Source of the DNA: Escherichia coli
GTDB taxonomy: Bacteria; Pseudomonadota; Gammaproteobacteria; Enterobacterales; Enterobacteriaceae
Assembly: GCF_001677475.2 (NCBI RefSeq)
Contig: NZ_CP015229.1
DNA: 64,000 nt
Reading direction: 5' to 3' (one strand)
Shown here: positions 16,737 through 64,000 of the stretch, piece by piece
Layout: every line of letters begins with the position of its first letter
Position numbering within the stretch: the stretch's first letter is position 1
The notes under the pieces: generated by a model
Told to the model about the DNA's origin: nothing
The model's input: only the letters and a program-made list of their open reading frames with translations
Database searches by the model: none
Translations under genes and position numbers: made by a program

Positions 16737-16748
16737 ATGGTGCCGAGG

Positions 16749-17051: not shown

Positions 17052-17060
17052 ATTTGTACG

Positions 17061-40841: not shown

Positions 40842-40860
40842 GATACGTCAGCAAGAATTC

Positions 40861-40889
40861 AAAACCCGCTTAATCAGCGGGTTTTTTTT
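40861..40889. terminator. Bidirectional intrinsic terminator between cspE and crcB
   Basis: aaacccgct-taatc-agcgggttt hairpin flanked by an A-run and a T8 run. Confidence 0.7.
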
Positions 40890-40894
40890 GGTCT

Positions 40895-41278: not shown

Positions 41279-41370
41279 TGCAAAATCCTGCTATTTGATT
41301 TGTATGAGTGATAAGTGTAACGCCGAATAATCGTCGTTGGCGAATTTTACGACTCTGACAGGAGGTGGCA

Positions 41371-42159
41371 ATGCTGGTTGCTGCAGGACAGTTTGCTGTT
41401 ACATCTGTGTGGGAAAAGAACGCTGAGATTTGTGCCTCGTTGATGGCGCAGGCGGTGGAAAACGACGTATCGCTGTTTGTCCTGCCGGAAGCATTGCTGG
41501 CGCGCGATGATCATGATGCAGATCTATCGGTTAAATCAGCACAGCTGCTGGAAGGCGAATTCCTCGGACGTTTACGGCGAGAAAGTAAACGTAACATGAT
41601 GACGACAATTCTGACGATTCATGTTCCTTCAACGCCGGGGCGCGCATGGAATATGCTGGTGGCACTTCAGGCAGGAAACATCGTCGCCCGTTATGCCAAA
41701 CTGCATCTCTATGATGCATTTGCCATTCAGGAATCACGTCATGTTGATGCTGGTAATGAAATAGCTCCGTTACTGGAGGTGGAAGGGATGAAGGTCGGTC
41801 TGATGACCTGTTATGACTTACGCTTTCCAGAGCTGGCGCTGGCACAGGCATTACAGGGAGCTGAAATCCTGGTAGTTCCTGCCGCCTGGGTTCGTGGGCC
41901 GCTCAAAGAGCATCACTGGTCAACGTTGCTTGCCGCTCGTGCGCTGGATACCACCTGTTATATGGTGGCGGCGGGGGAGTGCGGGAACAAAAATATCGGG
42001 CAAAGCCGAATTATAGATCCCTTTGGCGTCACGATTGCGGCAGCGTCAGAAATGCCTGCACTCATTATGGCGGAAGTGACGCCCGAACGTGTGCGTCAGG
42101 TGCGCGCGCAACTGCCCGTCTTAAACAACCGTCGCTTTGCGCCGCCGCAATTATTATGA
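41371..42159 (+). CDS. ybeM: Nitrilase-superfamily (C-N hydrolase) protein, intact reading frame
   Basis: 262 aa from the ATG, with GGAGG 5 nt upstream. Catalytic triad contexts present: Glu (VLPEAL), Lys (YAKLHLYD), Cys ([10 protein letters not shown]). Confidence 0.85.
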
Positions 42160-42287
42160 TGTTTTTTTACTCGGCGCTTGATTCACCTTGTTACAGATTG
42201 CTATTGTGTGCGCGCGTCGAATGACCGTTAATATTCTCTGGTTTTTAAGGCGCGTTCTGTTGCCGGTTATATGTCAAGAAGGTATCT

Positions 42288-42491
42288 ATGGGTGAGATTA
42301 GTATTACCAAACTGCTGGTAGTTGCGGCGCTGGTCGTTCTGCTGTTTGGGACTAAGAAGTTACGTACGCTGGGCGGAGACCTTGGAGCGGCCATTAAAGG
42401 GTTCAAGAAGGCGATGAATGATGACGATGCTGCGGCGAAAAAAGGCGCAGACGTTGATCTTCAGGCTGAAAAGCTCTCTCATAAAGAGTGA
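42288..42491 (+). CDS. tatE: Twin-arginine translocase subunit (TatA paralog)
   Basis: 67 aa; single transmembrane helix followed by an amphipathic segment. Confidence 0.95.
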
Positions 42492-42531
42492 CGTGGCGAG
42501 CAGGACGCTCCCTCAATATCTTGTTCGATAC

Positions 42532-42563
42532 AAAAAAACCCGCTTCAAAAAGCGGGTTTTTTA
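42532..42563. terminator. Bidirectional intrinsic terminator between tatE and lipA
   Basis: aaacccgctt-caaaa-agcgggttt hairpin flanked by an A7 run and a T6 run. Confidence 0.7.
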
Positions 42564-42592
42564 TCAGACAGATGTAAGTAATTATTACAGGA

Positions 42593-43558
42593 TTACTTAA
42601 CTTCCATCCCTTTCGCCTGCAAATCGGCGTGGTAAGACGAGCGGACAAACGGACCGCATGCAGCATGGGTAAAGCCCATCGCCAGCGCTTCGGCTTTCAT
42701 TTCGTCGAACTCATCCGGGCTAACGTAACGTTGAACCGGCAGGTGATGGCGGCTTGGCTGCAAATATTGCCCCAGCGTTAGCATCGTCACACCATGACGG
42801 CGCAGGTCGCGCATTACCTCAATAATTTCTTCATTGGTTTCACCCAGACCCACCATCAGACCAGACTTGGTCGGGATTTCCGGATGCGCTTCTTTAAAGC
42901 GTTCCAGCAGCTTCAGCGACCAGTTGTAATCTGCACCAGGCCGTACCTGACGGTAAATACGCGGTACGTTTTCCAGGTTATGGTTGAACACATCTGGTGG
43001 TGTGGCGGTCAGAATATCCAGAGCACGATCCATACGACCGCGGAAATCCGGCACCAGAGTTTCAATTTTGATTTGCGGGCTTTTTTCCCGAATGGCAGTA
43101 ATGCAATCCGCAAAGTGTTGGGCACCGCCATCGCGCAGGTCATCACGGTCAACGGAGGTGATAACCACATAACGCAGCGCCATATCGGCAATGGTCTGCG
43201 CCAGTTTCACTGGTTCATTGGCATCCGGAGCTACCGGGCGACCGTGGGCAACGTCACAGAACGGACAACGGCGGGTACAAATAGCGCCGAGGATCATAAA
43301 CGTTGCTGTGCCGTGGTTGAAGCATTCCGCCAGGTTAGGGCAGGAGGCTTCCTCGCAGACAGAATGCAGGCCATTTTTGCGCATTGCGGCTTTGATGCCC
43401 TGGATACGTGTAGAGTCCGCTGGAAGCTTGATTTTCATCCATTCCGGCTTGCGCAGCAGGGCTTCGCGCTCTGTTGCCACGTTTTTAACCGGGATAAGGG
43501 CCATCTTATCGGCATCGCGGTATTTAACACCGCGTTCCATCACAATGGGTTTACTCAT
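42593..43558 (-). CDS. lipA: Lipoyl synthase (radical SAM)
   Basis: 321 aa; radical-SAM CTRRCPFC and auxiliary cluster [12 protein letters not shown]. Confidence 0.97.
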
Positions 43559-43766
43559 AGCGTGCGTGTTCCAGTTGCGAATTACGAAGGAAAGCGTTTC
43601 AATTCAATAGATTGTTGTAATTATCAACTATTTTTGAATTAACGACTGGCAGTATATCATTGAAACGGACCTGAAAGCAGCCAAAGCGGTCGCGAAAATG
43701 TAAAATTGTTGTTGGATTGTGCCATTTTTTCGCTCTTCGCTGTGATCTGGCTGTAACAATACTTTT

Positions 43767-44720
43767 TCAAAATGCATTACGGATAACATCTATTACCCCG
43801 TGCAGGATGGGATCACGCAGGCTGAATTTGTTGTAGTGGATAGAGAAATCTATTTGCTCCTCATTTAAGGACGGAAAAGGCAGTTTTTCTAGCGGCCAAC
43901 AACGGCTAAACAGGTTATAAAAACGGCTGGGAATAATCGCTAACATGTCACTGTTGGCAACCAGTGCAGCGATTGTCAAAATGTTGTAGCTGGTGAAACT
44001 GATTTGCCGGTCCGGAAACATCTCTTGAACTCTCTGCCGCAGACCGCTGAAATTTTGCCCTTCCGGTAACAGGAGTATATGCGCAGCGTTGTCGATAGTC
44101 TCCCTGTCATCTTCTAAAGAGAGTAGTGGATTTCCCTCACGGCAAATTAACACCATATTGTCGGTGAACAGAACATGATGTTGCACCGTACGATTGGTGC
44201 AAAACATGTTATCGATGATGAGATCGGTTTGAAACTGACTGAGTTGGTTTTCCGCGTCGCTGATGGGCGGGTTGCGCAGTAAAAGCTGCGGATAGTGAGT
44301 TTTAATCGCCCGATAGATGACAGGAAGGACCAGGGCTCCGACCGAGGGGGTGGTCGCAATAGTTATCGTTCGTTGCTTATCATAGCTTCCTTCGATATCC
44401 AGCGCGCCAAGAATGGACTCAAGGCCCTGACTGATATACTCATGTAGATGCATCGCAAATGCGGTAGGAGTGACACCCTGGCCTTTGCGAATAAACAATG
44501 GGTCAGGGAATATAACGCGCAGTTTCTGAATAGACTGACTGATTGCCGAGGGTGTCAGATTAAGCACTTTCGCTGCATTAACGATCCCTTTATGTACATA
44601 TACAGCTTCAAAAATAGTCAGAAGGTTAAGATCAATATTTCGTAAGGTTGTAAATATTTGTGGTTTACCTTCTGACGACTTTCTGCTTAAACAGGTTTCA
44701 ATTTGATTATTACTATCCAC
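43767..44720 (-). CDS. ybeF: LysR-family transcriptional regulator
   Basis: 317 aa; N-terminal helix-turn-helix (VNAAKVLNLTPSAISQSIQKLR). Confidence 0.88.
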   Translation of the reverse strand: MDSNNQIETCLSRKSSEGKPQIFTTLRNIDLNLLTIFEAVYVHKGIVNAAKVLNLTPSAISQSIQKLRVIFPDPLFIRKGQGVTPTAFAMHLHEYISQGLESILGALDIEGSYDKQRTITIATTPSVGALVLPVIYRAIKTHYPQLLLRNPPISDAENQLSQFQTDLIIDNMFCTNRTVQHHVLFTDNMVLICREGNPLLSLEDDRETIDNAAHILLLPEGQNFSGLRQRVQEMFPDRQISFTSYNILTIAALVANSDMLAIIPSRFYNLFSRCWPLEKLPFPSLNEEQIDFSIHYNKFSLRDPILHGVIDVIRNAF

Positions 44721-44979
44721 GCACTTACTCCAATTTTATTCATGGAAAAATAATATTTAAAAAAATTACAATAATCTTATGTCTAATTGGAACGGAACGC
44801 TTTTGCTCACCATAATCAACTATTTCAATAAGTTAATCAATGGGGTGAGTTACGGAGCAAGGCGTAGCATCGCATTTCTGCAAGTGATAAAGAAAATATA
44901 CAAACGCGAAGGAGATGTAAAGCATTAGCGGGTATTATGAGTAATGACCCAGTGTAAATTGGGCCATTGAGGTATGCAA

Positions 44980-45621
44980 TTAAGCGGTAATATATTCGAA
45001 GTCAGGATTGTTTAGTAGCGCTAAAATATTTTCCAGTAAACGTGGTGCAATATTATTAGTCGTCGCTTCGGGTTTCCATTGTGATATTTTAGCCATTTCC
45101 ATTCCGGCATACCCACAAGGATTAATACGTAAAAATGGTGAAAGATCCATATTGACGTTTAATGCCAGACCGTGGAATGAACAACCGCGTCGAATACGTA
45201 AACCCAGTGAGCAAATTTTCTTTTCCCCGACATAGACACCAGGCGCGTCAGCCCGAGGATGCGCTTCTATACCCAGTTCAGCCAGGGTATTCACCACTGT
45301 TTGCTCAAGCAAGGTCACCAGTTCACGCACACCGAGTTTACGGCGTTTCAGGTTAAGCAACACATACATCACCTGTTGCCCCGGCCCGTGATAAGTCACC
45401 TGCCCACCGCGATCGCTCTGAATCACCGGAATATCACCCGGCATTAAAATGTGCTCCGCTTTTCCTGCCTGCCCTTGAGTGAATACCGGATAGTGCTCGA
45501 CCAGCCAGATTTCATCAAGGGTACTTTCATCGCGGGTATCGGTGAATTCATGCATAGCCTGGGAGATTGGCTCGTAAGGCTGAAGACCGAGCTGGCGGAC
45601 AAGAATTTTATCCTGATACAA
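44980..45621 (-). CDS. lipB: Octanoyltransferase (lipoate-protein ligase B)
   Basis: 213 aa; conserved position between ybeD and ybeF/lipA. Confidence 0.93.
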
Positions 45622-45721
45622 AACGGCATCTCCGTGGAGAATGAGTAAAAGTGGGGGAAAAGTATATCACAGCGAGGAGAGGGGAGTTACCCGACCAGGA
45701 GCCGGGTAACGGAGAAGCGAG

Positions 45722-45985
45722 TTACAGAACCATGCGGACAATATCGATTTTGCCCAGTTCTTCATACAGTGTTTCAACCTGCTCGATATGAGTCGCGTTG
45801 ATAGTGATAGATACCGAGTGGTAGTTGCCTTTGCTGCTTGGTTTTACCGTTGGGGTGTAGTCACCTGGCGCATGGCGCTGTACCACTTCAACCACCTGAT
45901 CAACCAGCTCAGGTAACGCCTGCCCCATAACTTTGTAAGTAAAAGGAGTAGGGAATTCAAGCAGTTCGTTAAGTTTGGTTTTCAT
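45722..45985 (-). CDS. ybeD: UPF0250 family small protein
   Basis: 87 aa; between dacA and lipB. Confidence 0.93.
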
Positions 45986-46094
45986 GTCAGCTCCGGCGTA
46001 ACGTAATTAAATAGCAACTCCCGCCAGAAGGCGGGAGTTTTTTACTGATGCTTAGTATATGGGGACGGAAATTACACTTTCAAGTGTTCAATTT

Positions 46095-47306
46095 TTAACC
46101 AAACCAGTGATGGAACATTAATTTAATGTAATCAATGATTTTGCCGAAGAAGTTACCTTCCGGGATTTCTTGCAACACAACCAGCGGGCGTTGCTCGATC
46201 GTTTTGCCATCAAGCTGGAAGTTGATAGTTCCGACGACCTGATTCTTTTGCAGCGGCGCATGCAATTCACTGCTGTTCAGCACATAGCTGGCTTTCAGAT
46301 CTTTCATGCGACCACGCGGAATGGTCAGGTACACGTCTTTATCAACCCCTAACGAAGCGCGATCAGAATCACCAAACCAAACCGGTTCAGAGGCGAACTC
46401 TTTACCTACTTTCAGTGGGTTAACGGTTTCGAAGAAACGGAAGCCCCAGGTCAGCAGTTTTTTACTTTCGGCTTCACGGCCTTTAAAAGTACGTCCGCCC
46501 ATCACCGCAGAGATCAAGCGCATCTGGCCTTCAGTCGCAGAAGCAACAAGGTTGTAACCTGCTTTGTCAGTGTGTCCGGTTTTGATGCCGTCGACATTCA
46601 GGCTGTTATCCCATAACAGACCGTTACGGTTCAGCTGGCGAATACCGTTAAACGTAAATTCTTTTTCTTTATAGATCGAGTATTCATTTGGTACGTCACG
46701 GATCAACGCCTGGCCGATCAGCGCCATATCGCGCGCGGAGCTGTACTGACCATCAGCATCCAGACCATGTACCGTCTGGAAGTGGGTATTTTTCAGGCCC
46801 AGGGCGTTAACGTAGCTGTTCATCAAGCCAACAAAAGCGTCCTGGCTACCAGCGGCAAAATCGGCCATGGCGACGCAAGCATCGTTACCCGATTGCAGGT
46901 TAATACCGCGGATCAGCTGAGAAACCGGAACCTGCATGCCCGGTTTGAGGAACATCAGCGAAGAACCTTTAAACACCGGGTTACCGGTGGCCCATGCGTC
47001 GTTGCCGATAGTGACTAAATCAGTTTCTTTAAATTTACCGGCTTTCATTGCCTGGCCGATAACGTAACTGGTCATCATTTTGGTCAGGCTGGCAGGATCG
47101 CGGCGGACATCTGCGTTCTGTTCGGCGAGCACTTTGCCGGAGTTATAGTCAATCAGGATGTAGGACTCCGCGTCGATCTGCGGTACACCCGGGATCATAG
47201 TTTTGATATTCAGGTCATCGGCATGTGCAGCAGAGATAAAGGCTGTGCAAAGAGCCGTGGTGAGCGCCAGGCGCTTCATGATACGAGCGGAAAAAATGGT
47301 ATTCAT
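46095..47306 (-). CDS. dacA: D-alanyl-D-alanine carboxypeptidase (PBP5)
   Basis: 403 aa; signal peptide; SLTK, SGN and KTG motifs. Confidence 0.96.
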
Positions 47307-47445
47307 GGTCTGAACTACGACATCCGTGATGGAATTAAAAAAAGTGCCCTACTATAGCAAATGCACTACCGGCAGGCATCTGACTTTCCGCGTGACTTTG
47401 TTAACGTCATTTACAGAAATTGACACATCAGATGCCTGCTTTACG

Positions 47446-48534
47446 CTACTGCGCGGTGGTAATAAATGACTGTAATTGGGCTTCGGTTTGCAAACGTTGC
47501 TGCAAGGTACTGGCTTCGGCTTTGCTGGCGAATGGGCCAAGCTGGATCCGCCAGACCGCGCCATTTTGAGTTACGCGACCGGGGACGCCGAACTTCTGTC
47601 CCAGTTGCTGTTGGTACTGTTGCGCACGCGCCTGATCGCTTACGGCCCCAACTTGCACCATAAAGTTGCCGCTGGCGCTTTGCGAGGCGGCTTGCGGTGT
47701 CACCATTGCAGGCGAGGTTGCAGGCGTTGTCGACGGAGCTGTAACAACGGGCTGTGGCGCAGGTGTTGGTTCGCTGCCTTCCAGAACACCAGGCGCTAAG
47801 GTCGTTGGTGCACCGAGGAAACCGCTGCTGGTTACCGGCGCGCCGGTCGGATCTTCGCTTTTTAGCGTCGAATTACTGACCGGAAGAATGTCACCCTGCG
47901 GGCCAGACACTGAACTTGTTCCCGCGCCACCGCTTAAATCGGGAGGTGCAGGCAGGGCATAAGTCTGTTTAGCAACTGTGGTACAGGCCATACCAGGACC
48001 AGAAAGCGAACCATCCTGGGCGACAATAATCGGATCGATACGAACTTTGGTGTTGTTTGACGTGTTAAGACGGTCAGCTGCCGCGCGAGAAAGCGAAATA
48101 ACGCGGTCGTTGCCGTAAGGACCGCGATCATTAATGCGCACCACGATCATTCGCCCGTTAGCCAGGTTAGTGATTCTGGCGTAGCTGGGGATCGGAAGCG
48201 TTGGATGGGCCGCCGTCAACTGTGTCGGATCGAATGCTTCGCCAGAGGCCGTCAGGTTACTGCCGGGTTCGGCATCATAGATTGCCGCCAGTCCCGCCAG
48301 GCTAAATCGAGACGGATCCTGTACGATTTTGTAGCTTTTACCGTCGCGCTGGTAATCCTGGTTTGCCGTCGCGTTCAGTGGTTCGAAACGCGGGTCCGCC
48401 CCGCTAATTTCAACTATGGGGCCGTTACATACCGCAGGCTGCGGTACACTTACCGTCTGTTGCTGACCATCATCGCTTGTACATGCCGCGAGCATTCCTG
48501 CCGCGATGCAGATCCCGAGCCACTGCTTACGCAT
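47446..48534 (-). CDS. rlpA: Septal ring lytic transglycosylase RlpA (rare lipoprotein A)
   Basis: 362 aa; lipobox LAAC; Pro/Thr/Ala-rich linker; C-terminal SPOR-like region. Confidence 0.93.
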   Translation of the reverse strand: MRKQWLGICIAAGMLAACTSDDGQQQTVSVPQPAVCNGPIVEISGADPRFEPLNATANQDYQRDGKSYKIVQDPSRFSLAGLAAIYDAEPGSNLTASGEAFDPTQLTAAHPTLPIPSYARITNLANGRMIVVRINDRGPYGNDRVISLSRAAADRLNTSNNTKVRIDPIIVAQDGSLSGPGMACTTVAKQTYALPAPPDLSGGAGTSSVSGPQGDILPVSNSTLKSEDPTGAPVTSSGFLGAPTTLAPGVLEGSEPTPAPQPVVTAPSTTPATSPAMVTPQAASQSASGNFMVQVGAVSDQARAQQYQQQLGQKFGVPGRVTQNGAVWRIQLGPFASKAEASTLQQRLQTEAQLQSFITTAQ

Positions 48535-48544
48535 TGCGCACCTC

Positions 48545-49657
48545 TTACACGCTTTTCGACAACATTTTCCTGTGGGTGTGGATTGACATTACAATCCCGA
48601 ACCCAGCCATCAGCACAATAAGCGCCGATCCTCCATAACTGACCAGTGGGAGCGGAACCCCTACAACCGGCAGAATACCGCTTACCATACCAATATTTAC
48701 GAAGACATAAACGAATAATATCAGCATTAAGCCGCCAGCCATGACGCGACCAAAGGTGGTTTGCGCTCTGGCGGCTATCCACAGCCCGCGCATGATCAGC
48801 AGAATGTAAAGAGCGAGCAGAATCAAAATGCCCACTAATCCCAGCTCTTCCGCCAGTACCGCGAAGATAAAGTCGGTATGGCGTTCGGGGAGAAATTCAA
48901 GCTGTGACTGAGTGCCATGCAGCCAGCCTTTGCCGCGTAATCCGCCGGAGCCAATAGCAATTTTAGACTGAATAATGTGATAGCCCGCGCCGAGTGGGTC
49001 TGATTCCGGGTCCAGGAGCATCATTACGCGCTGGCGCTGGTAATCATGCATCAGGAAGAACCACAGAATAGGAATGAACGCCGCCACCAGCACTACTGCG
49101 ACGCCAATCAGACGCCAGCTAAGGCCAGAGAGGAACAGTACAAACAGACCGGAAAGCGCAACGAGGATTGATGTCCCCAGGTCAGGCTGCGCAGCCACCA
49201 GCAGCGTGGGCATAAATATCAGCACCAGCGCGATGCCTGTGTTCTTCAACGACGGCGGGCAAACGTCGCGGTTGATAAAGCGCGCAACCATCAGTGGTAC
49301 GGCTATTTTGGCAATTTCCGACGGCTGAAAACGAACAATACCGAGGTCCAGCCAGCGTTGAGCGCCTTTAGAGATGGCACCGAAAGCATCTACCGCCACC
49401 AGCAAAATAATACAGATGATATAGAGATAGGGGGCCCAGCCTTCATAAACGCGTGGAGGAATTTGCGCCATCACCACCATGATGACCAGACCCATCGCGA
49501 TTTGGCCTATTTTACGCTCCATCATGCCAATATCCTGACCGCTGGCGCTCCAGATAACCAGGGCGCTGTAAACCAGCAATGCCAGTAAAATCAGCAGCAT
49601 TGTGGGATCGAGATGGACTTTATCCCAGAATGTTTTTTTATTCGGATTATCCGTCAT
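48545..49657 (-). CDS. mrdB: Peptidoglycan glycosyltransferase RodA (SEDS family)
   Basis: 370-aa polytopic membrane ORF immediately downstream of mrdA. Confidence 0.96.
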
Positions 49658-49659
49658 GA

Positions 49660-51561
49660 TTAATGGTCCTCCGCTGCGGCAACCGCTGGATTTTCCGCAG
49701 GCAGATCGGTGTTGTTATCACCCAGCATAATGTGGTCGAGGATCTGGCGCATCAGCGTACCAACCGCTGGACCCGCGCCACCGTTCTCCAGAATCATGGC
49801 GACAGCCACTTGCGGATTGTTGTATGGCGCAAAGGCAGTCATCAGTTTGTGGTCACGTAAACGCTCGGCAATTTTGTGCGCATTATAGGTTTCGTTCGCT
49901 TTCAGACCGAAGACCTGAGCTGTACCAGATTTCGCCGCAATTTTGTACGGTGCGCTGGCAAAGTATTTATGCGCCGTACCGTTAGGGCGGTTAGCAACAC
50001 CGTACATACCGTCTTTCGCCAGCTCCCAGTAACCGGAATGAATATCGCCGACGGGTGGTTCATGCGGTTGTACCCATGGCACCTGTTTGCCGTCTTCGGC
50101 GGTGCTCATCAGCAAATGCGGAACCTTCACGATACCGTCATTAATCAGGATCATCAGTGCCTTACTCATCTGGATTGGGGTCGCTGTCCAGTAACCCTGG
50201 CCGATACCAACCGGAATGGTGTCACCCTGATACCACGGTTTTTTAAAGCGTTTCTGTTTCCATTCGCGGGTAGGCATGTTGCCGGAACGTTCTTCCGCCA
50301 GGTCGATACCGGTATAATGACCATAACCGAATTTACCCATCCATTCGGAGAGGCGATCGATCCCCATATCGTAGGCCACCTGATAGAAGAAGGTATCCGC
50401 AGATTCTTCCAGCGATCTTGTGACATTCAGACGCCCGTGGCCCCATTTTTTCCAGTCACGATAACGTTTTTCCGAACCTGGCAGTTGCCACCAGCCTGGG
50501 TCAAACAGCGTCGTATTGCGCGTGATCACCCCGGCGCTTAATGCCGAAACCGCCACATAGGGTTTAACTGTAGACGCGGGAGGATAAACCCCCTGTGTGG
50601 CGCGGTTCACCAGCGGTGTATTCGGGTCGTTCAGCAAGGCGGAATAATCTTTGCTGGAGATACCGTCAACAAATAGGTTTGGGTCATAACTAGGCGTGGA
50701 AACCAGCGCCAGCACCCCACCTGTACGCGGATCGGTGACTACCACAGCTGCGCGGCTACCCGCCAGCAGCGTTTCAATATATTGCTGGAGTTTGAGATCC
50801 AGCGTCAGGTAAATATCGTGTCCGGCTTGCGGTGGCACTTCTTTTAACTGGCGGATAACACGCCCACGGTTGTTAACTTCAACCTCTTCATAACCAGTCT
50901 GACCGTGCAGCACGTCTTCATAGTAACGCTCAATGCCCAGCTTACCTATATCATGCGTTGCCGCATAGTTGGCCAGTTTGCCGTCATTATTCAGGCGTTC
51001 GACGTCTTTATCGTTGATTTTCGACACATAGCCGATGACGTGGGTCAACGCCGAACCGTAAGGATAGTAACGACGTTTATAGCCTTTAACTTCAACACCC
51101 GGAAAACGGTACTGATTGACGGCAAAGCGAGCTACTTGTACTTCGGTCAGGTTAGTTTTCACCGGAATGGAGGTGAAACGGTGTGAACGTGCGCGCTCTT
51201 TTCGGAATGCAGCAATATCGTCATCGGTCAGATCAACCACGCTGCGCAAAGCGTCCAGCGTTTGCTGCACGTTATCGACTTTCTCCGGCATCATCTCTAT
51301 CTGGTAGATAGTGCGGTTAAGTGCCAGAGGGATACCGTTACGGTCGTAGATAATGCCGCGGCTGGGCGCGATAGGCACCAGCTTAATGCGGTTTTCATTA
51401 GAGCGGGTCTGGTAATCGGTAAAGCGAACAATTTGCAGATTATACAGGTTGGCGATAAGCACGCCGGTCAGCAGCAAAATCCCCAAAAAGGCGACCAGCG
51501 CCCGGCGCACAAACAGCGCGGACTCTGCCGTATAGTCGCGAAAAGAGTTCTGTAGTTTCAT
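49660..51561 (-). CDS. mrdA: Penicillin-binding protein 2 (elongasome transpeptidase)
   Basis: 633 aa; STVK and KSGT motifs. Confidence 0.96.
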
Positions 51562-51591
51562 CCGCTGCGTTTTCTACTCAAAGCTCCCTTA

Positions 51592-52059
51592 TCACTCACG
51601 GTGATAAGGATGGTTGGTGGTGATGCTCCACGCCCGGTACAGACTCTCTGCGACCAGCACGCGAACCAGCGGATGGGGGAGGGTAAGCGCCGACAGCGAC
51701 CAGCTCTGCTCTGCCGCCGCTTTACAGGCAGGCGACAACCCTTCAGGCCCGCCAATCAGTAGACTGACGTCGCGACCATCCAGCTTCCAGCGTTCCAGCT
51801 CAGCGGCTAACTGCGGCGTATCCCAGGGCTTGCCTGGAATATCGAGGGTGACAATGCGGTTTTTGCCTGCGGCCGCCAACATCTGCTCACCCTCTTTGTC
51901 GAGTATGCGCTTGATGTCCGCATTCTTGCCGCGTTTTCCGGCCGGAATTTCAATCAGCTCGAAGGGCATATCTTTCGGAAAACGACGCAGGTACTCGGTA
52001 AAACCGGTTTGTACCCAGTCCGGCATTTTCGTTCCCACGGCGACAAGTTGCAGCTTCAC
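51592..52059 (-). CDS. rlmH: 23S rRNA (pseudouridine1915-N3)-methyltransferase (SPOUT)
   Basis: 155 aa; operon position after rsfS. Confidence 0.95.
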
Positions 52060-52062
52060 GCA

Positions 52063-52398
<336 letters not shown>

Positions 52399-52639
52399 TC
52401 AAATAGATAAAAATGGTCTGTCAGTATACCTGAACCAGAGGCGATTTCGGGACAATTGTCGCCGAATCGGCTTTCGAAAGTGGGCTATCATCCCACCCCG
52501 CGCCGCAGATTGCATCGCCATTTTTGTAAAACAATTTCTACAAAGTCGTGTCTGGCGAAAAAAGTCTGGCTGCGGAGAATATCAGCCTGCCCGGGGCTGT
52601 CAATGGTCGTTGCGGCTTACCCGTAAAAAAACAGAAAAG

Positions 52640-53251
52640 TCATGCATTCTCGACCCCGATGGCACGGCTATTGAGGACGCGTAGCGTCGCGAATTTTTGG
52701 TTGATATCAATGGCGCTCCAACACCCCTGGTCAACGCGAAAATGCCACATAGCTTCGGCAGGCATACCAATTAAACGGGCGATTAACAGACTCAGTACAC
52801 CCTGATGGCTGACGACTAAAATATTCTGATAGTGCTGAAATTCACTAAGCCTTGCGATAAACCGTTCCACTCGTTGTGAAAATGCCTGAAATCCTTCACC
52901 GTTCGTGGGGATAGCATGCTGCCAGTCATTGCACCACGCGCTATAGTTTTCGGCATCTTCTTGCATGAGGTCGCGATGATGTCGCATCTCCCAGTCGCCA
53001 AAAAACATTTCGTTGAGTTCAGGGATGATTTGCACGGGAAGCTGGCGATCACTGAGAACCAGTCGCGCGGTATGCTGTGCCCGTTCCAGTTCACTGCATA
53101 AAACCAGGTCAAAGGAAACATCATCTAGCAGCGTATGCAGATTTTGCGCTTGCTCAATACCGCGCGCGGTCAGGGGAGTGGGCGCATGACCGCTGTACAG
53201 ACCATCGACATTCGCTTGCGTTTCGCCATGACGAATTAACCACAGTCGCAT
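52640..53251 (-). CDS. cobC: Alpha-ribazole phosphatase / histidine-phosphatase family
   Basis: Trimmed to second ATG (MRLWLIRHGETQ...); RHG catalytic motif. Confidence 0.9.
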   Translation of the reverse strand: MRLWLIRHGETQANVDGLYSGHAPTPLTARGIEQAQNLHTLLDDVSFDLVLCSELERAQHTARLVLSDRQLPVQIIPELNEMFFGDWEMRHHRDLMQEDAENYSAWCNDWQHAIPTNGEGFQAFSQRVERFIARLSEFQHYQNILVVSHQGVLSLLIARLIGMPAEAMWHFRVDQGCWSAIDINQKFATLRVLNSRAIGVENA

Positions 53252-53274
53252 CATGCCCTCCGTAACGACAGGTA

Positions 53275-53916
53275 TCAGCGATACAAGCCTTGTTGGTTAA
53301 TGTAAGTCAGTACCGGTTCCGGCAATAAATCCTCACACGATTCACCGTTTTGCAAACGTTCGCGGATGATGGTCGCCGAGATGTTAAACCACGGCGTTTC
53401 AGCCAGATAAATTTTACCGGCAGGCTGAAGGTGAAGATCTTCCGGGTTATGTGTCAAATGATCTTCCAGCCATTGCTGGTATTGCGTTTGCGCCATTTCA
53501 AGTGGGTAACCTGGACGCCGACAGACGATCAAATGTGCATTGTCGAGTATCGTTTCGTATTCGTACCAGGTCGGAAAGGTCAGCAATGAATCCTGACCAA
53601 TAATAAACGCCAGCGGCACGTCCGGTCCTTGTTCCTGCCGCCACTCTTTCAGTGTTTGCGCAGTGTAAGAAGGGGCATTGCGCTTTAGCTCGCGTTCATC
53701 AAGAGTAAATAATGGCTTGTCGGCAATCGCCAGTTCAAGCATGTGTTTACGCTGCACGCTGTTCGCTTCCGGCTGGGGACGATGCGGAGGAACATTATTA
53801 GGAATTATTGTGACCCGCGTCAGACCAATCAAATTCGCCAGCGTTTCCACGGGTTTTAGATGACCATAGTGCACCGGATCAAAGGTGCCGCCAAACAGAG
53901 CCTGTAAAGATTTCAT
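53275..53916 (-). CDS. nadD: Nicotinate-nucleotide adenylyltransferase
   Basis: 213 aa; nucleotidyltransferase motif [11 protein letters not shown]. Confidence 0.95.
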
Positions 53917-53917
53917 A

Positions 53918-54949
53918 TCAACCGTCGATAAATACGTCCGCCAGGGGTTTATGGCACAACAGAAGAGATAACCCTTCCAGCTCTGCCCACACTGACTGAC
54001 CGTAATCTTGTTTGAGGGTGAGTTCCGTTCGTGTCAGGAGTTGCACGGCCTGACGTAACTGCGGCTGGCTTAAGCGATTTAACGCCTCGCCCATCATGCC
54101 CCGGCGGTTCTGCCATACCCGATGCTTATCAAACAACGCACGCAGTGGCGTATGGGCAGACTGGCGTTTCAGGTTAACCAGTAACAACAGTTCACGTTGT
54201 AATGTGCGCAACAAAATAACCGGCTCGCTGCCTTCCAGACGCAGTTGCTGAAGAATGTGCAATGCGCGCTTGCTTTTGCCCATCAACAAAGCATCGACCC
54301 AATGAAAAGGGGTGAAATGCGCGGCATCATTCACTGCCTGCTCAACGCGCGGTAATGTCAGTTTGCCGTCCGGCCAGAGAAGCGATAAACGCTCCAGCGC
54401 CTGTGCCAGCGCCAGCAGGTTACCTTCATAACAATAGCAGAGCATCTGATTTGCAGCGTCATCCAGTTCTAAGTTGAGCTGTTTTGCACGCGCAGCAACC
54501 CAGCGAGGAAGCTGAGCCTGCTCCGGTGTCTGACAGGTTACCTGCACGCTTCGATTAGCAAGAGCAGTAAACCAGGCAGCATTTTCCTGCGCTTTGCTTA
54601 ATTTATTGCCGCGCACGATCAGCAGCAAATCGTCATGCAGCAGTCCGGTCAGTGTCAGAAGTTGGTCATTGATCGCCGCATTTGGTCCGTTTTCTGGTAA
54701 CAGCAGCAATAGCGTTTGTCGACTGGCGAACAGGCTCATGGCCTGGCATAGCGAAAATATCGCATTCCAGTCGGTGTTGGGATCAATGGAAAAAGTGTGG
54801 TGTTCTGCAAATCCTTGTGCTGCAGCTACCTGACGAACAGCGTCCTGGCTTTCCTGCAACAACAGAGGATCGTTACCAAGCAAAAGATACGCCGCGCGCA
54901 GCCCTTCATTGAGCTGCGCGCGGAGTTGTTCCGGGTACAACCGAATCAT
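53918..54949 (-). CDS. holA: DNA polymerase III delta subunit
   Basis: 343 aa; conserved lptE-holA-nadD arrangement. Confidence 0.95.
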
Positions 54950-55527
54950 CAGTTACCCAGCGTAGTAGAGACGCGTGCAGGCGTTGCTGCAGTATCCGTT
55001 GTTTTCGACGTATCTTCGTCGGAACGGATATCCGCAGCGCGGATGCTTGGCAGCTTACGTATCAGCTGTTCGGCAGCACGGTCGTACATCTCTTGAATGA
55101 TCATGCTTTGCTCATTATCTTTCGCTAACGCCATTTGCGGGTTATCGAAGAACGAACGGAAGACTTTGGCGCTAATCGGGTAGATGTCACGGCCAGGGAT
55201 CAATACTGACGCGCTGACAGTCATCACCATTTGATATTCAGCGGTTTGACCATTACGGAAAACTGAAGCGGTATCCTGGGAGATTGATACAGCACCCAAA
55301 CGCAGGGATGGAACATCCTTACGCGTGGTTTCTTTATCAAGCAACTCAACACCGTTCAGACGCAACTGATTACGCACCGCACGGCTTAACGGCCCGTTCG
55401 GGTCGCCAGAGTCCAGGATCATGACCTTCATAGTGGAAGGAACCTGCGTGGTATCACGCAGATGCCAGCCACACCCGGCGGTGATTAACACCGCCAGAGA
55501 TAACAACAATGTTGCCAGATATCGCAC
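54949..55527 (-). CDS. lptE: LPS assembly lipoprotein
   Basis: 192 aa; lipobox ITAGC; 1-nt overlap with holA. Confidence 0.93.
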
Positions 55528-55541
55528 GCTTCCTCCCGCGC

Positions 55542-58124
55542 TTAGCCAACGACCAGATTGAGGAGTTTACCCGGTACGTAAATCACTTTACGCACGGTAA
55601 CGCCATCAAGATATTTTGCTACCAGATGTTCCTGGCCAGCACGTTCGCGAACCTGTTCTTCCGTTGCATCTACCGGAACGGTGATTTTGGCACGGACTTT
55701 ACCGTTAACCTGCACCACCACCAGCGTGGAATCTTCCACCATCGCTTTCTCGTCTGCAACCGGCCACGGCGCGTTGTCGATATCGCCTTCGCCTTTCAGT
55801 TCCTGCCACAGCGTGAAGCAGATGTGCGGCGTGAACGGGTTAAGCATACGAACAACGGCCAGCAGGGCTTCCTGCATCAGCGCGCGATCCTGCTCACCAT
55901 CGGTCGGTGCTTTTGCCAGTTTGTTCATCAGCTCCATAATCGCCGCAATTGCAGTGTTAAAGGTCTGACGACGACCGATATCATCGGTCACTTTAGCGAT
56001 AGTTTTATGAACATCACGACGCAGAGCTTTCTGATCTTCAGTCAGTGCGTCAACGTTCAGCGCCGCAACATCACCTTTCGCAGTGTGCTCGTAAACCAGT
56101 TTCCAGACACGTTTCAGGAAGCGGTTAGCCCCTTCAACGCCGGACTCCTGCCATTCGAGAGTCATATCCGCCGGAGAAGCGAACATCATAAACAGACGAA
56201 CGGTGTCCGCGCCGTAACGTTCAACCATCACCTGCGGGTCGATACCGTTGTTCTTCGACTTAGACATTTTGCTCATGCCGGTATACACCAGTTCATGGCC
56301 TGCCGCGTCTTTCGCTTTCACGATACGGCCTTTCTCGTCGCGCTCAACGATAGCATCAACCGGGGAAACCCAGTTACGTTCGCCGTTTTCGCCTACATAG
56401 TAGAAGGCATCTGCCAGCACCATCCCCTGACACAGCAGCTGTTTCGCTGGCTCGTCAGAGTTCACCATGCCTGCATCACGCATCAGTTTGTGGAAGAAGC
56501 GGAAGTAGAGCAGGTGCATGATGGCGTGTTCGATACCACCAATGTAGATATCCACTGGCAGCCAGTAGTTAGCTGCTTTGGAATCCAGCATACCCTCTTT
56601 GTACTCCGGGCAAGTGTAGCGCGCATAGTACCAGGAGGACTCCATAAAGGTGTCGAAAGTATCGGTTTCACGCAGTGCCGGCATACCATTAACGGTGGTT
56701 TTCGCCCACTCAGGATCTGCTTTGATCGGGCTGGTAATACCATCCATTACCACATCTTCCGGCAGGATCACCGGCAACTGGTCGTCCGGAGTAGGCATCA
56801 CAGTGCCGTCCTCCAGCGTCACCATCGGAATCGGTGCGCCCCAGTAACGCTGACGGGAAACACCCCAGTCGCGCAGGCGATAGTTTACTTTACGCTCGCC
56901 AACGCCCATTGCCGTCAATTTGTCGGCAATGGCGTTAAAGGCCGCTTCATGGTCAAGACCGTTGAACTCGCCAGAGTTGAACAGCACGCCTTTTTCAGTC
57001 AGGGCTTGCTGAGAAAGATCTGGCTCAGAGCCGTCAGCTGCCAGGATAACCGGTTTGATATTCAGGCCGTATTTAGAGGCAAACTCGTAGTCGCGCTGGT
57101 CGTGACCCGGAACCGCCATAACTGCGCCCGTGCCGTATTCCATCAATACGAAGTTTGCTGCCCAAACGGGAATTTCTTCGCCCGTTAATGGGTGAACCGC
57201 TTTAAAGCCAGTATCGACGCCTTTTTTCTCCATCGTCGCCATTTCAGCTTCGGCAACTTTGGTGTTACGGCATTCGTCAATAAAGGCCGCCAGTTCAGGA
57301 TTATTTTCCGCCGCTTTCTGCGCCAGCGGATGACCCGCAGCTACCGCCAGGTAGGTACAACCCATAAAGGTGTCCGGGCGGGTAGTGTAAACGGTCAGCG
57401 TGTTGTCATAGTCGTTAACGTTGAAGGTGATCTCCACGCCTTCGGAACGACCGATCCAGTTACGCTGCATGGTTTTAACGGTGTCTGGCCAGTGATCCAG
57501 TTTATCCAGATCGTTGAGCAGCTCGTCAGCGTAAGCGGTGATTTTGATAAACCACTGCGGGATCTCTTTACGCTCAACTTTGGTATCGCAGCGCCAGCAG
57601 CAGCCGTCGATAACTTGTTCGTTCGCCAGTACGGTCTGGTCGTTCGGGCACCAGTTGACCGCAGAAGTCTTCTTATATACCAGGCCTTTTTTATACAGCT
57701 CGGTGAAGAATTTCTGTTCCCAACGGTAGTATTCCGGCGTACAGGTTGCCAGCTCGCGGCTCCAGTCATAACCAAAGCCCAGCATTTTGAGCTGGTTTTT
57801 CATATACGCGATGTTGTCGTACGTCCACGGTGCCGGAGCGGTGTTGTTTTTCACCGCCGCGCCTTCCGCAGGCAGACCAAACGCGTCCCAGCCGATCGGC
57901 TGCAGAACGTTTTTGCCCAGCATGCGCTGGTAACGGGCGATCACGTCACCGATGGTGTAGTTACGTACGTGGCCCATGTGTAGTCGACCAGAAGGATAGG
58001 GAAGCATAGACAGGCAGTAATACTTCTCTTTGCTCTCGTCTTCGGTTACTTCAAATGTGCGCTTCTCATCCCAATGAAGCTGTACTTTGGATTCTATCTC
58101 TTCCGGGCGGTATTGCTCTTGCAT
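55542..58124 (-). CDS. leuS: Leucine--tRNA ligase
   Basis: Trimmed to ATG at 58124 ([10 protein letters not shown]...); class I motifs HMGH and KMSKS. Confidence 0.97.
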
Positions 58125-58359
58125 GGCAGCCAGTGGTCCTGTTTTCATTACGGCTACAAAAGTAGCGTTAGAGGTGGTTTTTCAGATCCGCATAGCATAG
58201 CCCAAACGTCCGCGTCAAAACAGCCTTTCGCGCACTCGACGTTGAAATGATGCCCGGATTATTCATACATTAATTTACAGAGTTTGTGGGCGTATTAGCA
58301 AAGCAAGGAACAAAGAACGTCTATTATTATAGTCAGTTAACGACCCGGGAGATGAAACG

Positions 58360-58842
58360 ATGAACAAGGTTGCTCAATATTACCGTGAACTGGTCGCGTC
58401 ACTGAGCGAACGCCTGCGTAATGGCGAACGTGATATCGACGCACTGGTGGAACAGGCGCGCGAGCGCGTAATAAAAACAGGGGAGTTAACGCGAACCGAG
58501 GTCGATGAGCTGACGCGAGCTGTCAGACGTGACCTGGAAGAGTTCGCCATGAGCTATGAAGAGAGCCTGAAAGAAGAATCTGACAGCGTCTTTATGCGGG
58601 TGATTAAAGAAAGCTTATGGCAGGAGCTGGCAGACATCACCGATAAAACGCAGCTTGAATGGCGCGAAGTTTTCCAGGACCTCAATCATCACGGGGTTTA
58701 TCACAGCGGAGAAGTGGTAGGGCTGGGAAATCTGGTCTGCGAGAAATGTCACTTCCATCTCCCAATCTACACACCGGAAGTGCTGACGCTATGCCCGAAA
58801 TGTGGTCATGATCAGTTCCAGAGACGCCCGTTCGAGCCGTAA
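58360..58842 (+). CDS. ybeL: DUF1451 family protein with C-terminal CxxC pairs
   Basis: 160 aa; two Cys pairs (CEKCH ... CPKCGH). Confidence 0.9.
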   Translation: MNKVAQYYRELVASLSERLRNGERDIDALVEQARERVIKTGELTRTEVDELTRAVRRDLEEFAMSYEESLKEESDSVFMRVIKESLWQELADITDKTQLEWREVFQDLNHHGVYHSGEVVGLGNLVCEKCHFHLPIYTPEVLTLCPKCGHDQFQRRPFEP

Positions 58843-58875
58843 TAGTCTGATTTCGCACAGCAATAAAGAGAATAT

Positions 58876-58908
58876 GGGCCGAATGAAATTCCCCGGCCCT
58901 TGTTTTTA
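58876..58908 (+). terminator. Intrinsic terminator of ybeL
   Basis: gggccg...cggccc stem followed by ttgttttta. Confidence 0.55.
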
Positions 58909-58911
58909 TCT

Positions 58912-59889
58912 CTACAGTAAATCTTCAATCTCACGAATTTCTTGACTGACATCTCTGGTTCCGGATGACTGAACTTTACGATACAGGTCGAGAGCCTGTC
59001 GGAGATCGACAGGTCTTCCTTCTCCGTAGTGATACATAATGGCCAGGTTATACCAGGCAGTGGCGTCATTGCATTCAGCGGCTTTCGTAAACCATTCAAA
59101 GGCGGCCTGATAATCTTTCTCAACGCCTTGTCCGTGTTTATACATATAACCGATGTTGACGTAAGCGCCGACGCTCCCCTGAGCGGCAGCCTTCAGATAC
59201 CAGTACATCGCTTGCTTATAGTCCTGGTCCACCCCTTCGCCAGCGTTATAATCCCATGCAATTTGAAACTGAGCATGCCGATTACCCTGCTGTGCGCTTT
59301 TCAAATACCAGAATGCGGCGAGTGTCTCGTTTTGAGCGACGCCTTTTCCGTCTTCATAAAGATCGGCCAGATTGTTTTGCGCGTCACTATGGCCTTGTAA
59401 TGCAGCTTGTTTGTACCAGAAAAATGCCAGCGTATAGTCTTGTGCGACTCCGTTGCCATTTCTGTACATCCACCCAAGATTATTTTGCGCATAAGACATT
59501 CCGCTCTCCGCGGCTATCTGATACCAGGCAACCGCTTCTTTATAGTTGGGGTCTTCTCCACGATCCAGTATCCAGCCAAGGGCGTTGGAAGCGAAAGTAT
59601 GGCCTTGTAGGGCAGCTTTTTTCAGCCAAAAGATGGCTTGCTCATTATCTTTATGACGGCTTTTATCCTCGGAGTATTTCCGCCCTAAGGAATATTGTGC
59701 TTCACAATGGCTTTGCTCAGCGGCCAGCTTCAGCCAGTAAAAGGCCTTTTCGTCGTCCGGAGAGTCAATTGCGCTATCGCGATTATAATAAAACCCAATA
59801 ATATATTGAGCCTCGCAATCGCCTTTTTCAGCACGTTCGATAATCTCATCTATTGATAAATTATCGCAGCAACTTGACGTAAAAATCAT
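58912..59889 (-). CDS. ybeQ: Sel1-repeat (TPR-like) protein
   Basis: Repeated Sel1 units (e.g. AQYSLGRKY, AQNNLGWMYRNG); start set at the second ATG, which has better AAGGA spacing. Confidence 0.85.
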   Translation of the reverse strand: MIFTSSCCDNLSIDEIIERAEKGDCEAQYIIGFYYNRDSAIDSPDDEKAFYWLKLAAEQSHCEAQYSLGRKYSEDKSRHKDNEQAIFWLKKAALQGHTFASNALGWILDRGEDPNYKEAVAWYQIAAESGMSYAQNNLGWMYRNGNGVAQDYTLAFFWYKQAALQGHSDAQNNLADLYEDGKGVAQNETLAAFWYLKSAQQGNRHAQFQIAWDYNAGEGVDQDYKQAMYWYLKAAAQGSVGAYVNIGYMYKHGQGVEKDYQAAFEWFTKAAECNDATAWYNLAIMYHYGEGRPVDLRQALDLYRKVQSSGTRDVSQEIREIEDLL

Positions 59890-60052
59890 TATCATTTCCT
59901 TATGGTTGTAGATAAAACATATTATATTTTTATGTGTTCCATTTTTGCGTAAACCTTATTTTATGCGTATTATGTTGCGTCAGAAAAGTATAAATAAATG
60001 AGCCTCGCAACGTGGTTAATATTCATTGAATGAATATTTAAGGATAAATTAT

Positions 60053-60759
60053 ATGGACATGGAGTCGCAAAAAATATTGTTTGCACTTTCCACTCCGATG
60101 GAAATACGCAATAAATGCTGTTTACCTTCGCATTCATCCCCCAAAATGTATTTAGGTACATGCTTTTTGACCTTTCTTCCTCATGGGGAATTGATGGCCG
60201 TGATGACCTGCTGCGCACAATTCACCGAATGATCGATAACGGTCATGCCGCGCGGTTGGCAGGGCTTTATCACCGCTGGTTTCGTTATTCTCCGTGTGAA
60301 TGGCGTGACTATCTTGCTGAACTAAATGAGCAAGGTCAGGCTTATGCGCAATTTGTCGCCAGCACCGCCGAATGCTGTGGCGAAGGGGGAATCAAAGCCT
60401 GGGATTATGTCCGGATGGGTTTTTTAAGCCGAATGGGCGTACTTAATAACTGGTTGAGCGAAGAAGAAAGTCTATGGATCCAGTCGCGCATTCATCTACG
60501 GGCGCTACGTTATTATAGTAACTGGCAGCAATACTTTGCCGGTTATACCTTTGGTCGGCAATATTGGCAGTCTCCCGAAGATGATAATCTTCAGTTATTA
60601 CGTGAATTCTTAGCGCGTAAAGAATACGACGATTCCGGCAATGATATGTTTTATCAATTATTTGCCAGTGATGATGCGTATTACCCTACCTTGTCCTGGC
60701 AACCATTGGCTTACTATTCTGCATGCCCGGAAACGCTTAAGGATATGAGCGACCTATGA
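60053..60759 (+). pseudogene. ybeR: DUF1266 family gene disrupted by a -1 frameshift in a T-run
   Basis: N-terminal 38 codons (60053..) and the C-terminal body (ORF 60115-60759) are in different frames. Alignment to the intact paralog ybeU shows the break at the T5 run 60164-60168. Confidence 0.75.
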
Positions 60760-62183
60760 AAAATTGCTGGCAGATCCTCGATATATCTCAAACGACTGAC
60801 GTCGATATTATCCGCCGCGCTTATCTGGCGCTGTTACCGTCCTTTCATCCAGAAACCGATCCGCAGGGTTTTAAACAACTTCGTCAGGCGTATGAGGATG
60901 CGCTACGGATTGCGCAGTCGCCTGCTAAATCTGTTTGGCAACCAGAAGAATATGAGGTAGCAGAACATGAAATTCTGCTCGCCTTTCGCGCGTTACTTGC
61001 CTCTGATAGCGAACGTTTTCTGCCCTCCGCCTGGCAGCGATTCATTCAGCAATTAAATTATTGCTCGATGGAAGAGATTGATGAATTACGCTGGTCGCTG
61101 TGCACAATCGCCATGAACACTGCCCATTTATCCTTCGAGTGCGTGGTGTTATTAGCAGAAAGATTGCGGTGGTTGCAGGAGGAAAACGTCGGGGAAATAG
61201 ACGAAGAAGAACTGGAATCCTTTTTATATGCCATTGCGAAGGGGAATGTTTTTAACTTCCAGACCATTCTGCATCTGCACGTTGCCGTGCAAAATGACAC
61301 TATCGATTTTTACCAAATGTTCGCTCGGATTTGGTTATCGCATCCAGAATGGCTGACATTGTATTTAGCGCAACATCGCGCAGTGATTATCCCCGATGAT
61401 GCAAAACTGCACAGAAATTTACTCCGCTGGTATAGCGCAGGTCGCCTGGGAATCCCCGAACTCCTGGATTACGCCCGGTCGTGGCGGGAAGCTGAACCTG
61501 ATAATGAAGATGCGCGTTATTATGAATACGCACAACGCGTCTATTGTGGAGAAGGCGAAAGCTTGCTGGCAGAACTTTGTGACTACTGGCGCGAGTATCC
61601 CTCCACCCAGGCGGATGCTTTAATGTTGCAATGGTGCCGTCAGCATCGGGTCGATTATTACCCGTTAGTGGTGATGATGATTGAAGCTCGTGAACTGGTT
61701 AACGATCAGGGAAAACCGCTACTTTATATCCCCGGCGACAGCGCCCGTACGCGTTTTCATTTATACGAAATACTCAGCGATGAAAAACTCTCTGCTCTGG
61801 GGCGTTCACTGGTCGAGATGGTTTTGCACAAAGGACGTAAGCCGCGAATCTCACTCACGCGTGATACAGAACATCCCTTATGGCCATTATATTTAGTTGC
61901 TAAACAATTAGTTCAGGCCAGCCAACCGACAGAAGAATCATTAATGCCGATTGTGAGCCGCCTTGATGCAGAAGCTCGTTGTCCACTGGAAGCATTAATG
62001 ATTCGTCGATTATTAATTCAGGCGGCAAATTTTACCGAGAAGCAAACCGTCGAACCGGAGCCGCAACCGCAGCCAATGCCCGTTGACGATGGTGGGCCGG
62101 GCTGTCTGGGCGTCATCAAAATTATTTTCTACATTTTTATCTTTGCCGGTTTGATAGGGAAAATACTCCATCTGTTCGGGTGA
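60756..62183 (+). CDS. djlB: J-domain (DnaJ-like) membrane-anchored co-chaperone
   Basis: 475 aa; N-terminal J-domain; C-terminal hydrophobic anchor; ATGA overlap with ybeR. Confidence 0.9.
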
Positions 62184-62192
62184 CAGTCGACG

Positions 62193-62747
62193 TTAATGTG
62201 CGGGAAGCCCGGCAAGTAATCTTTCCGCATTTTTGTAATGTTGTTTGGCGGCCAGTTTTAACCATTTTTGAGATTCATAATGGTTAACATTAATACCTGA
62301 GCCATTTCTGTAGATCAAACCCAAAGTATATTGAGCATGAGCATACCCTTGTTCAGCTGCTTCCTTATACCAGAGAATTGCTTTACGGGTATCGGGTTTG
62401 ACCCCCAGACCTTTGAGGTAGATCCACCCCAGTTTACTTTGCGCGCGTGGATTTTCCTGTTCCGCTGATTGCTCATACCAGTATCTCGCCTGTGTATAAT
62501 CCAGTGGTTTACCGTCGCTACCATGAAGATAAAATTCTCCAAGTCGATATTGCGACGTTGAGTGACCATGAATCGCGGAAAGCTCTGTGGCTGCCGTGGT
62601 GAATGGAAGACTGCCCGGTGAGCTTAAATAATCAAAGGCATAATTCGCCATGGCTTTATCACGCAACGTCGTTTTCTTGGGTTGGCTAATACAGGTTATT
62701 GCTGCAACTATAAATATTGCGAATATATACATTAATTTTTTATTCAT
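62193..62747 (-). CDS. ybeT: Sel1-repeat protein
   Basis: 184 aa; signal-peptide-like N-terminus; Sel1 units ([24 protein letters not shown]). Confidence 0.88.
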
Positions 62748-62848
62748 GTGTGAATACTTCGATTTTCTTTTTATTTTGAAAGCGTCAAGTTTATACTCAT
62801 CAATAATAAAAAAGTAGTCAGTTAATGCACTTAAGGGATTATTAACAA

Positions 62849-63556
62849 ATGAACAAGGAAGAACAATATCTTCTTTTTGCGCTTTCTGCGCCCATGGAAA
62901 TACTTAATCAGGGTTGCAAACCCGCGCATGACTCGCCAAAAATGTATACCGGGATAAAAGAATTCGATCTCTCATCATCCTGGGGAATAAATAATCGTGA
63001 TGATTTAATTCACACTATTTATCAGATGACCGATGATGGTCATGCTAATGATTTAGCTGGCTTATATCTGACATGGCATCGCTCTTCCCCTGAAGAGTGG
63101 AAAGCATTAATTGCTGGCGGCTCGGAGAGAGGGTTGATTTATACCCAATTCGTTGCCCAAACCGCTATGTGTTGTGGGGAAGGGGGAATCAAAGCCTGGG
63201 ATTATGTGCGGATGGGTTTTTTATCACGGGTTGGTGTGCTCAACAAGTGGCTGACGGAAGACGAGAGTTTATGGCTGCAATCGCGCGTCTATATACGAGC
63301 ACACCATTACTATCACAGCTGGATGCACTATTTTTCCGCCTATTCGTTAGGGCGTCTCTACTGGCAATCTTCTCAGTGCGAAGACAACGCTTCGCTACGC
63401 GAGGCGCTAACCCTGTACAAATACGATAGCGCCGGGAGTCGGATGTTCGAAGAGCTGGCAGCGGGAAGCGATCGTTTCTATGCCACGCTTCCCTGGCAGC
63501 CATTAACTGTCCAGCCTGAATGCCCGGTAACGCTTAAGGATGTGAGCGGCCTATGA
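62849..63556 (+). CDS. ybeU: DUF1266 family protein (intact paralog of ybeR)
   Basis: 235 aa; high identity to the ybeR translation (e.g. [20 protein letters not shown] identical). Confidence 0.88.
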
Positions 63557-64000
63557 AAACATGTTGGCAAATCCTCGAAATTGAAAGCACGACGCAAATA
63601 GACATTATCCGCCAGGCTTATCTTGCTCGCTTACCGTTGTGTCATCCCGAAACCGATCCGCAGGGGTTTAAAGCATTACGCCAGGCCTATGAAGAGGCGC
63701 TGCGACTGGCGGTAAATCCTGTCGAGGAAGCAGATAATGAAGAAAAAGATGCCACCGCTGAACATGAAATACTACGAGCATTCAGGACATTACTGGATTC
63801 AGAAAGTGATCGTTTTCAGCCCTCCGCCTGGCAGAAATTTATTCAGCAATTAAATACCTGGAACATGGAGGATGTCGATCAATTACGCTGGCCGCTGTGT
63901 GCAATCGCTATAGAAGCGCGATATCTTTCATTAAATTGTGCTTCTTTGCTGGCAGAGCGTTTGAACTGGCATTCGTTTAATGACAGCGAAGGAATGGATG
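63553..64000 (+). CDS. djlC: J-domain co-chaperone, 5' portion (3' end lies outside the window)
   Basis: ATG at 63553 overlaps the ybeU stop (ATGA). Translation [40 protein letters not shown]... is paralogous to the djlB N-terminus. Frame open to the window end. Confidence 0.85.

Follow-up and report, generated by a model that had tools for sequence, protein, structure and literature searches.

How should the broken reading frame of ybeR in this stretch of E. coli DNA be read: as a gene that has been lost, as a homopolymer that switches the gene on and off, or as a sequencing error? The initial annotation of the stretch, the whole 64,000 nt of which we call the window, had left these three options side by side. 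We find that in this clone of E. coli a run of six Ts in ybeR is one T short, so that the reading frame is broken, and comparison with other genomes makes it very probable that this is a real, recent and clone-specific loss-of-function allele. In kind it is an ordinary frameshift pseudogene, of a sort already known, in a non-essential gene.

The window is a piece of the E. coli chromosome with entF, enterobactin and citrate-lyase genes, lipA and leuS, followed by the genes from ybeL to djlC. ybeR occupies its orthologous position, between ybeQ and djlB and upstream of ybeT-ybeU-djlC, and K-12, VCSW7 and GN06156 share the order ybeL-ybeQ-ybeR-djlB-ybeT-ybeU-djlC in their annotated loci. The 901-nt stretch at 59900-60800 shares 96.9-97.5% DNA identity with annotated ybeR loci (96.9% with K-12), and the restored protein scores 155.9 bits with PF06889 (DUF1266), for which the gathering cut-off is 27 (E=1.5e-45), over profile positions 2-175 of 175. 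This domain match and the synteny with annotated loci bear out the gene name first proposed from the letters alone. The K-12 gene (b0645, in the cluster ybeQ-ybeR-djlB / ybeT-ybeU-djlC beside hscC) is thus alike in position, gene order and domain, but it carries T6 and encodes 235 residues, as do 3,363 complete genomes, whereas the ybeR of the window carries T5 and a split frame. The parts of the locus are as follows.

60040-60044, plus strand: Shine-Dalgarno sequence AAGGA of the native ybeR start (ATG 60053), -5.9 kcal/mol with the 16S 3' end, spacing about 7-8 nt.
60053-60759, plus strand: the entire ybeR pseudogene, a DUF1266 protein gene of 707 nt against 708 nt when intact.
60053-60232, plus strand: 5' fragment ORF (from translation and the ORF list), 38 native YbeR residues, 21 out-of-frame residues and TGA.
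60115-60759, plus strand: 3' ORF of 214 codons with the entire DUF1266 domain (from translation and PF06889), homologous to YbeR from about 60166.
60160-60162, plus strand: internal ATG that shares the frame of the 3' ORF and directly precedes the DUF1266 domain, a possible but weak restart.
60164-60168, plus strand: T5 run, site of the 1-nt deletion, ancestrally T6 (from alignments and oligo searches of complete genomes).
60229-60232, plus strand: ATGA, shared by the TGA that ends the 5' fragment and an in-frame ATG, the Met61 codon of intact YbeR; sequence CGAATGATCGA, placed by frame check.
60756-62183, plus strand: djlB, a J-domain co-chaperone gene (from the ORF list and the annotation of orthologous loci).
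62849-63556, plus strand: ybeU, the unbroken paralog of ybeR (235 aa), with 59% identity to restored YbeR over all 235 aa and no gaps; PF06889 E=8e-45.

The frame opened by ATG 60053 reads MDMESQKILFALSTPMEIRNKCCLPSHSSPKMYLGTCF and then 21 out-of-frame residues, for 59 codons in all, and stops at TGA 60230-60232. The 214-aa translation of the ORF at 60115-60759 carries the conserved body of YbeR, and gene callers report this ORF as a product in its own right (P0002). Both halves of the split had been described correctly, and so had its cause, a T missing from a homopolymer: in a 222-column alignment with K-12 and VCSW7, both T6, the sole gap falls in the run C-TTTTT-G, where the codons 38-39 region TGC TTT TTT GAC has become TGC TTT TTG ACC. 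The site was well placed too, although tgc-ttttt-gac occupies 60161-60171 and not 60161-60170, as had been written. The labels "-1 frameshift" and "+1 frame" are better put as a 1-nt deletion that shifts the downstream frame leftward by one (60053 mod 3 = 2, 60115 mod 3 = 1); ATG 60160 does lie in that downstream frame. As predicted, adding one T yields a 235-aa YbeR, which occurs verbatim in the protein collection (P0001, on 22 contigs labelled E. coli). In a Pfam profile search, PF06889 extends over residues 20-195 of the 3' ORF, or residues 41-216 of intact YbeR. Chance is not at issue here: thousands of genomes have an intact ortholog against which the split is defined. The 90%-identity cluster that contains the YbeR protein (235 aa; P0001/P0002) also holds DjlB proteins (475 aa) and has a DjlB as its representative, an odd grouping for neighboring genes that are unrelated; it may stem from some assemblies in which ybeR and djlB were called as one fused gene.

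The paralog offers an internal point of comparison. ybeU had been described as intact and reading through the same point, and the copy in the window is indeed unbroken there. Like ybeR, it encodes 235 residues with the same domain, and its neighbors are of the same kinds: a divergent Sel1/TPR gene (ybeT) before it and, after it, a J-domain gene (djlC) that overlaps it. Unlike the ybeR of the window, it is intact, and its equivalent codons are of the type GGC ATT AAA GAG TTT GAT (TGIKEFD), so that ybeU has no T6 run at that point. Across the 38 N-terminal residues upstream of the lesion, YbeR and YbeU are identical at 22 of 38 positions, the same level as over the entire protein (59%). This segment is therefore under constraint, and a product that lacks it is unlikely to be equivalent to YbeR.

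Which state came before the other can be read from other isolates. We searched 5,426 complete genomes with oligos of 32-35 nt, such that any 28-nt megablast seed covers the entire T-run with the base on either side, with the following counts for the two flank alleles.

Flank ACATGC: T5 in 0 genomes, T6 in 2,658, T7 in 0.
Flank ACACGC: T5 in 1 genome (NZ_CP048107.1), T6 in 705; T7 was searched with the ACATGC flank only.

T6 thus makes up the total of 3,363 given above, T7 is absent among complete genomes for the one flank allele searched, ACATGC, and T5 occurs once, in an error-ridden assembly. No length polymorphism at the level of the population was seen among the complete genomes. Low-complexity masking was considered as a reason for the lack of T5 matches and rejected, given that 2,658 genomes were hit by the T6 oligo, which is the more repetitive of the two. 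The lineage of the window has no close complete genome: among the 5,426, the best identity is 97.5% over the 901 nt around ybeR and 98.2% over 20 kb (window 40000-60000), and near-identical sequences are found in draft assemblies only. Two of these are draft contigs, L003 (GCA_019143475.1) and L004 (SRR11608754), that encode an identical DjlB and are 99.95% identical to the window over 6,245 nt. Each differs from it by two SNPs and by the T-run, the only indel, and each has T6 and an intact 235-aa YbeR. T6 is the ancestral state; the frame of the window is broken relative to intact orthologs, and its intact ancestor can be identified in these 99.95%-identical relatives as well as in the complete genomes with T6. 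Within ybeR the T-run is the only change relative to the two relatives, and T5 is therefore derived and recent.

Just past the right end of the window, after djlC, this lineage has an insertion. It starts within the hairpin GCCGGATGCAGCGTTTAT|GCCGCATCCGGC (L003 7287-7428; L005 14928-14992), at a place where GN06156 goes on to hscC; its first letters are TGAACTGCACCCCAAATGTTGG, and it codes for a transposase-like HTH protein (MKHSFEVKLAAVNHYLAG...). This is where the contigs L004, L005 and L009 all break off, as a repeated IS element would lead one to expect.

That the strain truly has T6 and that the missing T is a miscall deserves to be weighed with some care, as homopolymer indels are a classic error of several sequencing platforms and the only complete genome with T5 is a case in point. 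NZ_CP048107.1 (L008, 3648445-3653476), a "complete" RefSeq sequence, has leuS, ybeL, ybeQ and ybeR all annotated as frameshifted and is evidently an uncorrected long-read assembly. Its T5 ybeR bears the PGAP label "frameshifted", given to a CDS with a single-base homopolymer indel in an otherwise conserved gene; there the neighbours, including the essential leuS, are frameshifted too, which marks an assembly artefact, whereas in the window ybeR alone is affected. When all indels of the window are listed against the complete genome GN06156, ybeR is the only CDS in 64 kb with a frameshifting indel, the others being intergenic, in-frame, in compensating pairs in divergent stretches, or in or beside a stop codon. 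The window thus shows no sign of systematic homopolymer error against GN06156 despite 47 A6/T6, 11 A7/T7 and 2 A8/T8 runs, and poor overall assembly quality can be set aside. In addition, two distinct NCBI assemblies share the T5, as do Logan re-assemblies made from reads. The contig look-up merges near-identical places, so that the carriers inspected are two named assemblies: L005 (GCA_002516285.1, contig NJSK01000029.1), 100% identical to window 50115-64000 and probably its source, and L009 (GCA_033729275.1), 100% identical to window 58849-64000. These two could come from the same strain or from a closely related outbreak clone. For the 214-aa product itself, NCBI and Logan together have 6 contigs. 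T5 is moreover linked to a SNP in ybeU, with Gly234 in T5 contigs (the window, L009) and Asp234 in the T6 relatives, as expected of a true sub-clade marker. On this evidence the T5 of the window is probably real, and the sequencing-error option raised at the outset looks unlikely. More improbable still is a contingency locus that would switch ybeR, and djlB by polarity, on and off. The run does lie near the 5' end of the gene, a typical place for slipped-strand switches, and both T5 and T6 occur within one very close lineage; the contingency loci of Haemophilus, Neisseria and Campylobacter likewise have a coding homopolymer near the 5' end whose length sets the frame. Unlike them, the tract in ybeR has only 5-6 nt, which is less than bacteria with proficient mismatch repair need for switching at useful rates, and its length is all but constant across E. 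coli, as the counts above show. It is also no different from 46 other A6/T6 runs in the window. The phase-variable option is therefore the one that we drop, and the genuine pseudogene is the one that we favor, with T5 in two assemblies of 100% identity and no other frameshifted CDS in 64 kb.

A real lesion need not abolish the protein, and the layout of the gene invites the question of whether ybeR could still function, through -1 frameshifting or transcriptional slippage at the T-run, or as a truncated DUF1266 protein started at ATG 60160 or at ATGA 60229. The entire Pfam domain (aa 41-216) lies 3' of the lesion and is uninterrupted, an in-frame ATG stands 4 nt before the T-run, and the TGA of the short ORF overlaps an in-frame ATG. 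Recoding finds little to work with, however. No slippery heptamer X XXY YYZ is present in the zero frame at the run, which reads C UUU UUG and whose first base bars P-site re-pairing, and the split arrangement was not found in orthologs, all others examined being single-frame; we therefore rejected a programmed -1 frameshift or slippage. RNA-polymerase slippage needs runs of about 9 or more, and T5 is far shorter. The internal starts fare little better in SD/anti-SD duplex energies, among which the AAGGA of ATG 60053 is the best ribosome-binding site of the candidate ybeR starts. For ATG 60115 an SD-like GGA lies some 11 nt off (-3.3 kcal/mol), which leaves this start essentially without an SD, ATG 60160 has as its only SD-like element an AGGU 1-2 nt from the ATG (-3.7 kcal/mol, poor spacing), and ATG 60229 has none. 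Internal initiation at these three codons was judged unlikely for its poor energies and spacings. The ATGA at 60229-60232 is a chance stop-start overlap, like those used in translational coupling, and reinitiation of ribosomes there is conceivable; a restart at this point would cost the domain its first ~20 residues, among them the motif FDLSSSWG, which YbeU has as well. The conserved 38 N-terminal residues would be lost in every case. Taken together, we regard a still functional ybeR as very unlikely. A related reading, on which we would place hardly more weight, is that T5 is a natural "domain-only" variant rather than a null, with a truncated YbeR made via ATGA 60229-60232 or ATG 60160 and translation still reaching the start of djlB. 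Were it true, the allele would be kept in the clone for altering the DjlB/HscC chaperone module and not for abolishing YbeR.

We return to loss of function as the preferred reading. Replication slippage is the usual cause of single-base loss from such a run, and it would have removed one T from T6 at codons 38-39. Ribosomes that start at ATG 60053 would then make a 59-residue peptide, 38 residues of it native and 21 unrelated. The DUF1266 domain, entirely downstream of the lesion, would be reached only through inefficient initiation at ATG 60115 or 60160 or through reinitiation at the ATGA. With internal start codons that have poor ribosome-binding sites, YbeR is most likely lost, and full-length YbeR is most likely absent from the T5 clone; some truncated product might yet be made from the open DUF1266 frame, with ATG 60160 right before the domain. 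The intact paralog ybeU may mask or compensate any phenotype. Effects on the next gene are also possible. The ATG of djlB overlaps the stop of ybeR (ATGA 60756-60759), an overlap also seen in K-12, and because of it early termination ~525 nt upstream may lower the translation of djlB, via lost coupling or polarity. The DjlB product is intact and identical in relatives; its match to the DnaJ domain is weak and under the Pfam cut-off.

ybeR sits in a duplicated module of Sel1/TPR, DUF1266 and J-protein genes that adjoins hscC. The Hsp70 HscC is stimulated by DjlC and, it is assumed, by DjlB too (PMC8215388). Each of the two J-proteins has a tail anchor, and for DjlC insertion into the plasma membrane has been demonstrated; at the membrane, HscC has DjlC and probably DjlB as its partners (PMC8215388). 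Deletion of hscC, or of djlB and djlC together, raises sensitivity to Cd2+ (PMC8215388). A natural ybeR-null clone with near-isogenic T6 relatives would make a comparison of Cd2+ phenotypes possible. A whole-word search of the literature for "ybeR" gave no paper on the function of YbeR, only background on HscC, DjlB and DjlC, and the PDB holds no significant sequence match to YbeR. A link to anti-phage defense was considered and rejected: the PADLOC defense models gave no match for YbeR, YbeU or DjlB, and only marginal repeat-type matches for the Sel1 proteins. The T5 allele is of use for marking one small clone of E. coli and otherwise matters little; for annotation, the proper label is "frameshifted pseudogene" rather than two ORFs.

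The comparison with GN06156 brought up other differences across the window. The block at 8431-24201 has 95.7% identity to GN06156 with many small indels, against 98.0% for 24282-64000. Within it, citR and the ybdN-citR-dsbG intergenic regions (21273-22366) depart from GN06156 far more than other parts of the window do, which suggests a different allele or a recombined segment. At 16707-16726, in the cstA-ybdD intergenic region, there is a 10-nt tandem duplication (GAATGTTGGC x2) relative to GN06156. A 1-nt indel at 58913, in the stop of ybeQ, turns TAA into TAG and leaves the protein unaltered, and a 3-nt in-frame deletion at 55013 shortens lptE from 193 aa in GN06156 to 192 aa.
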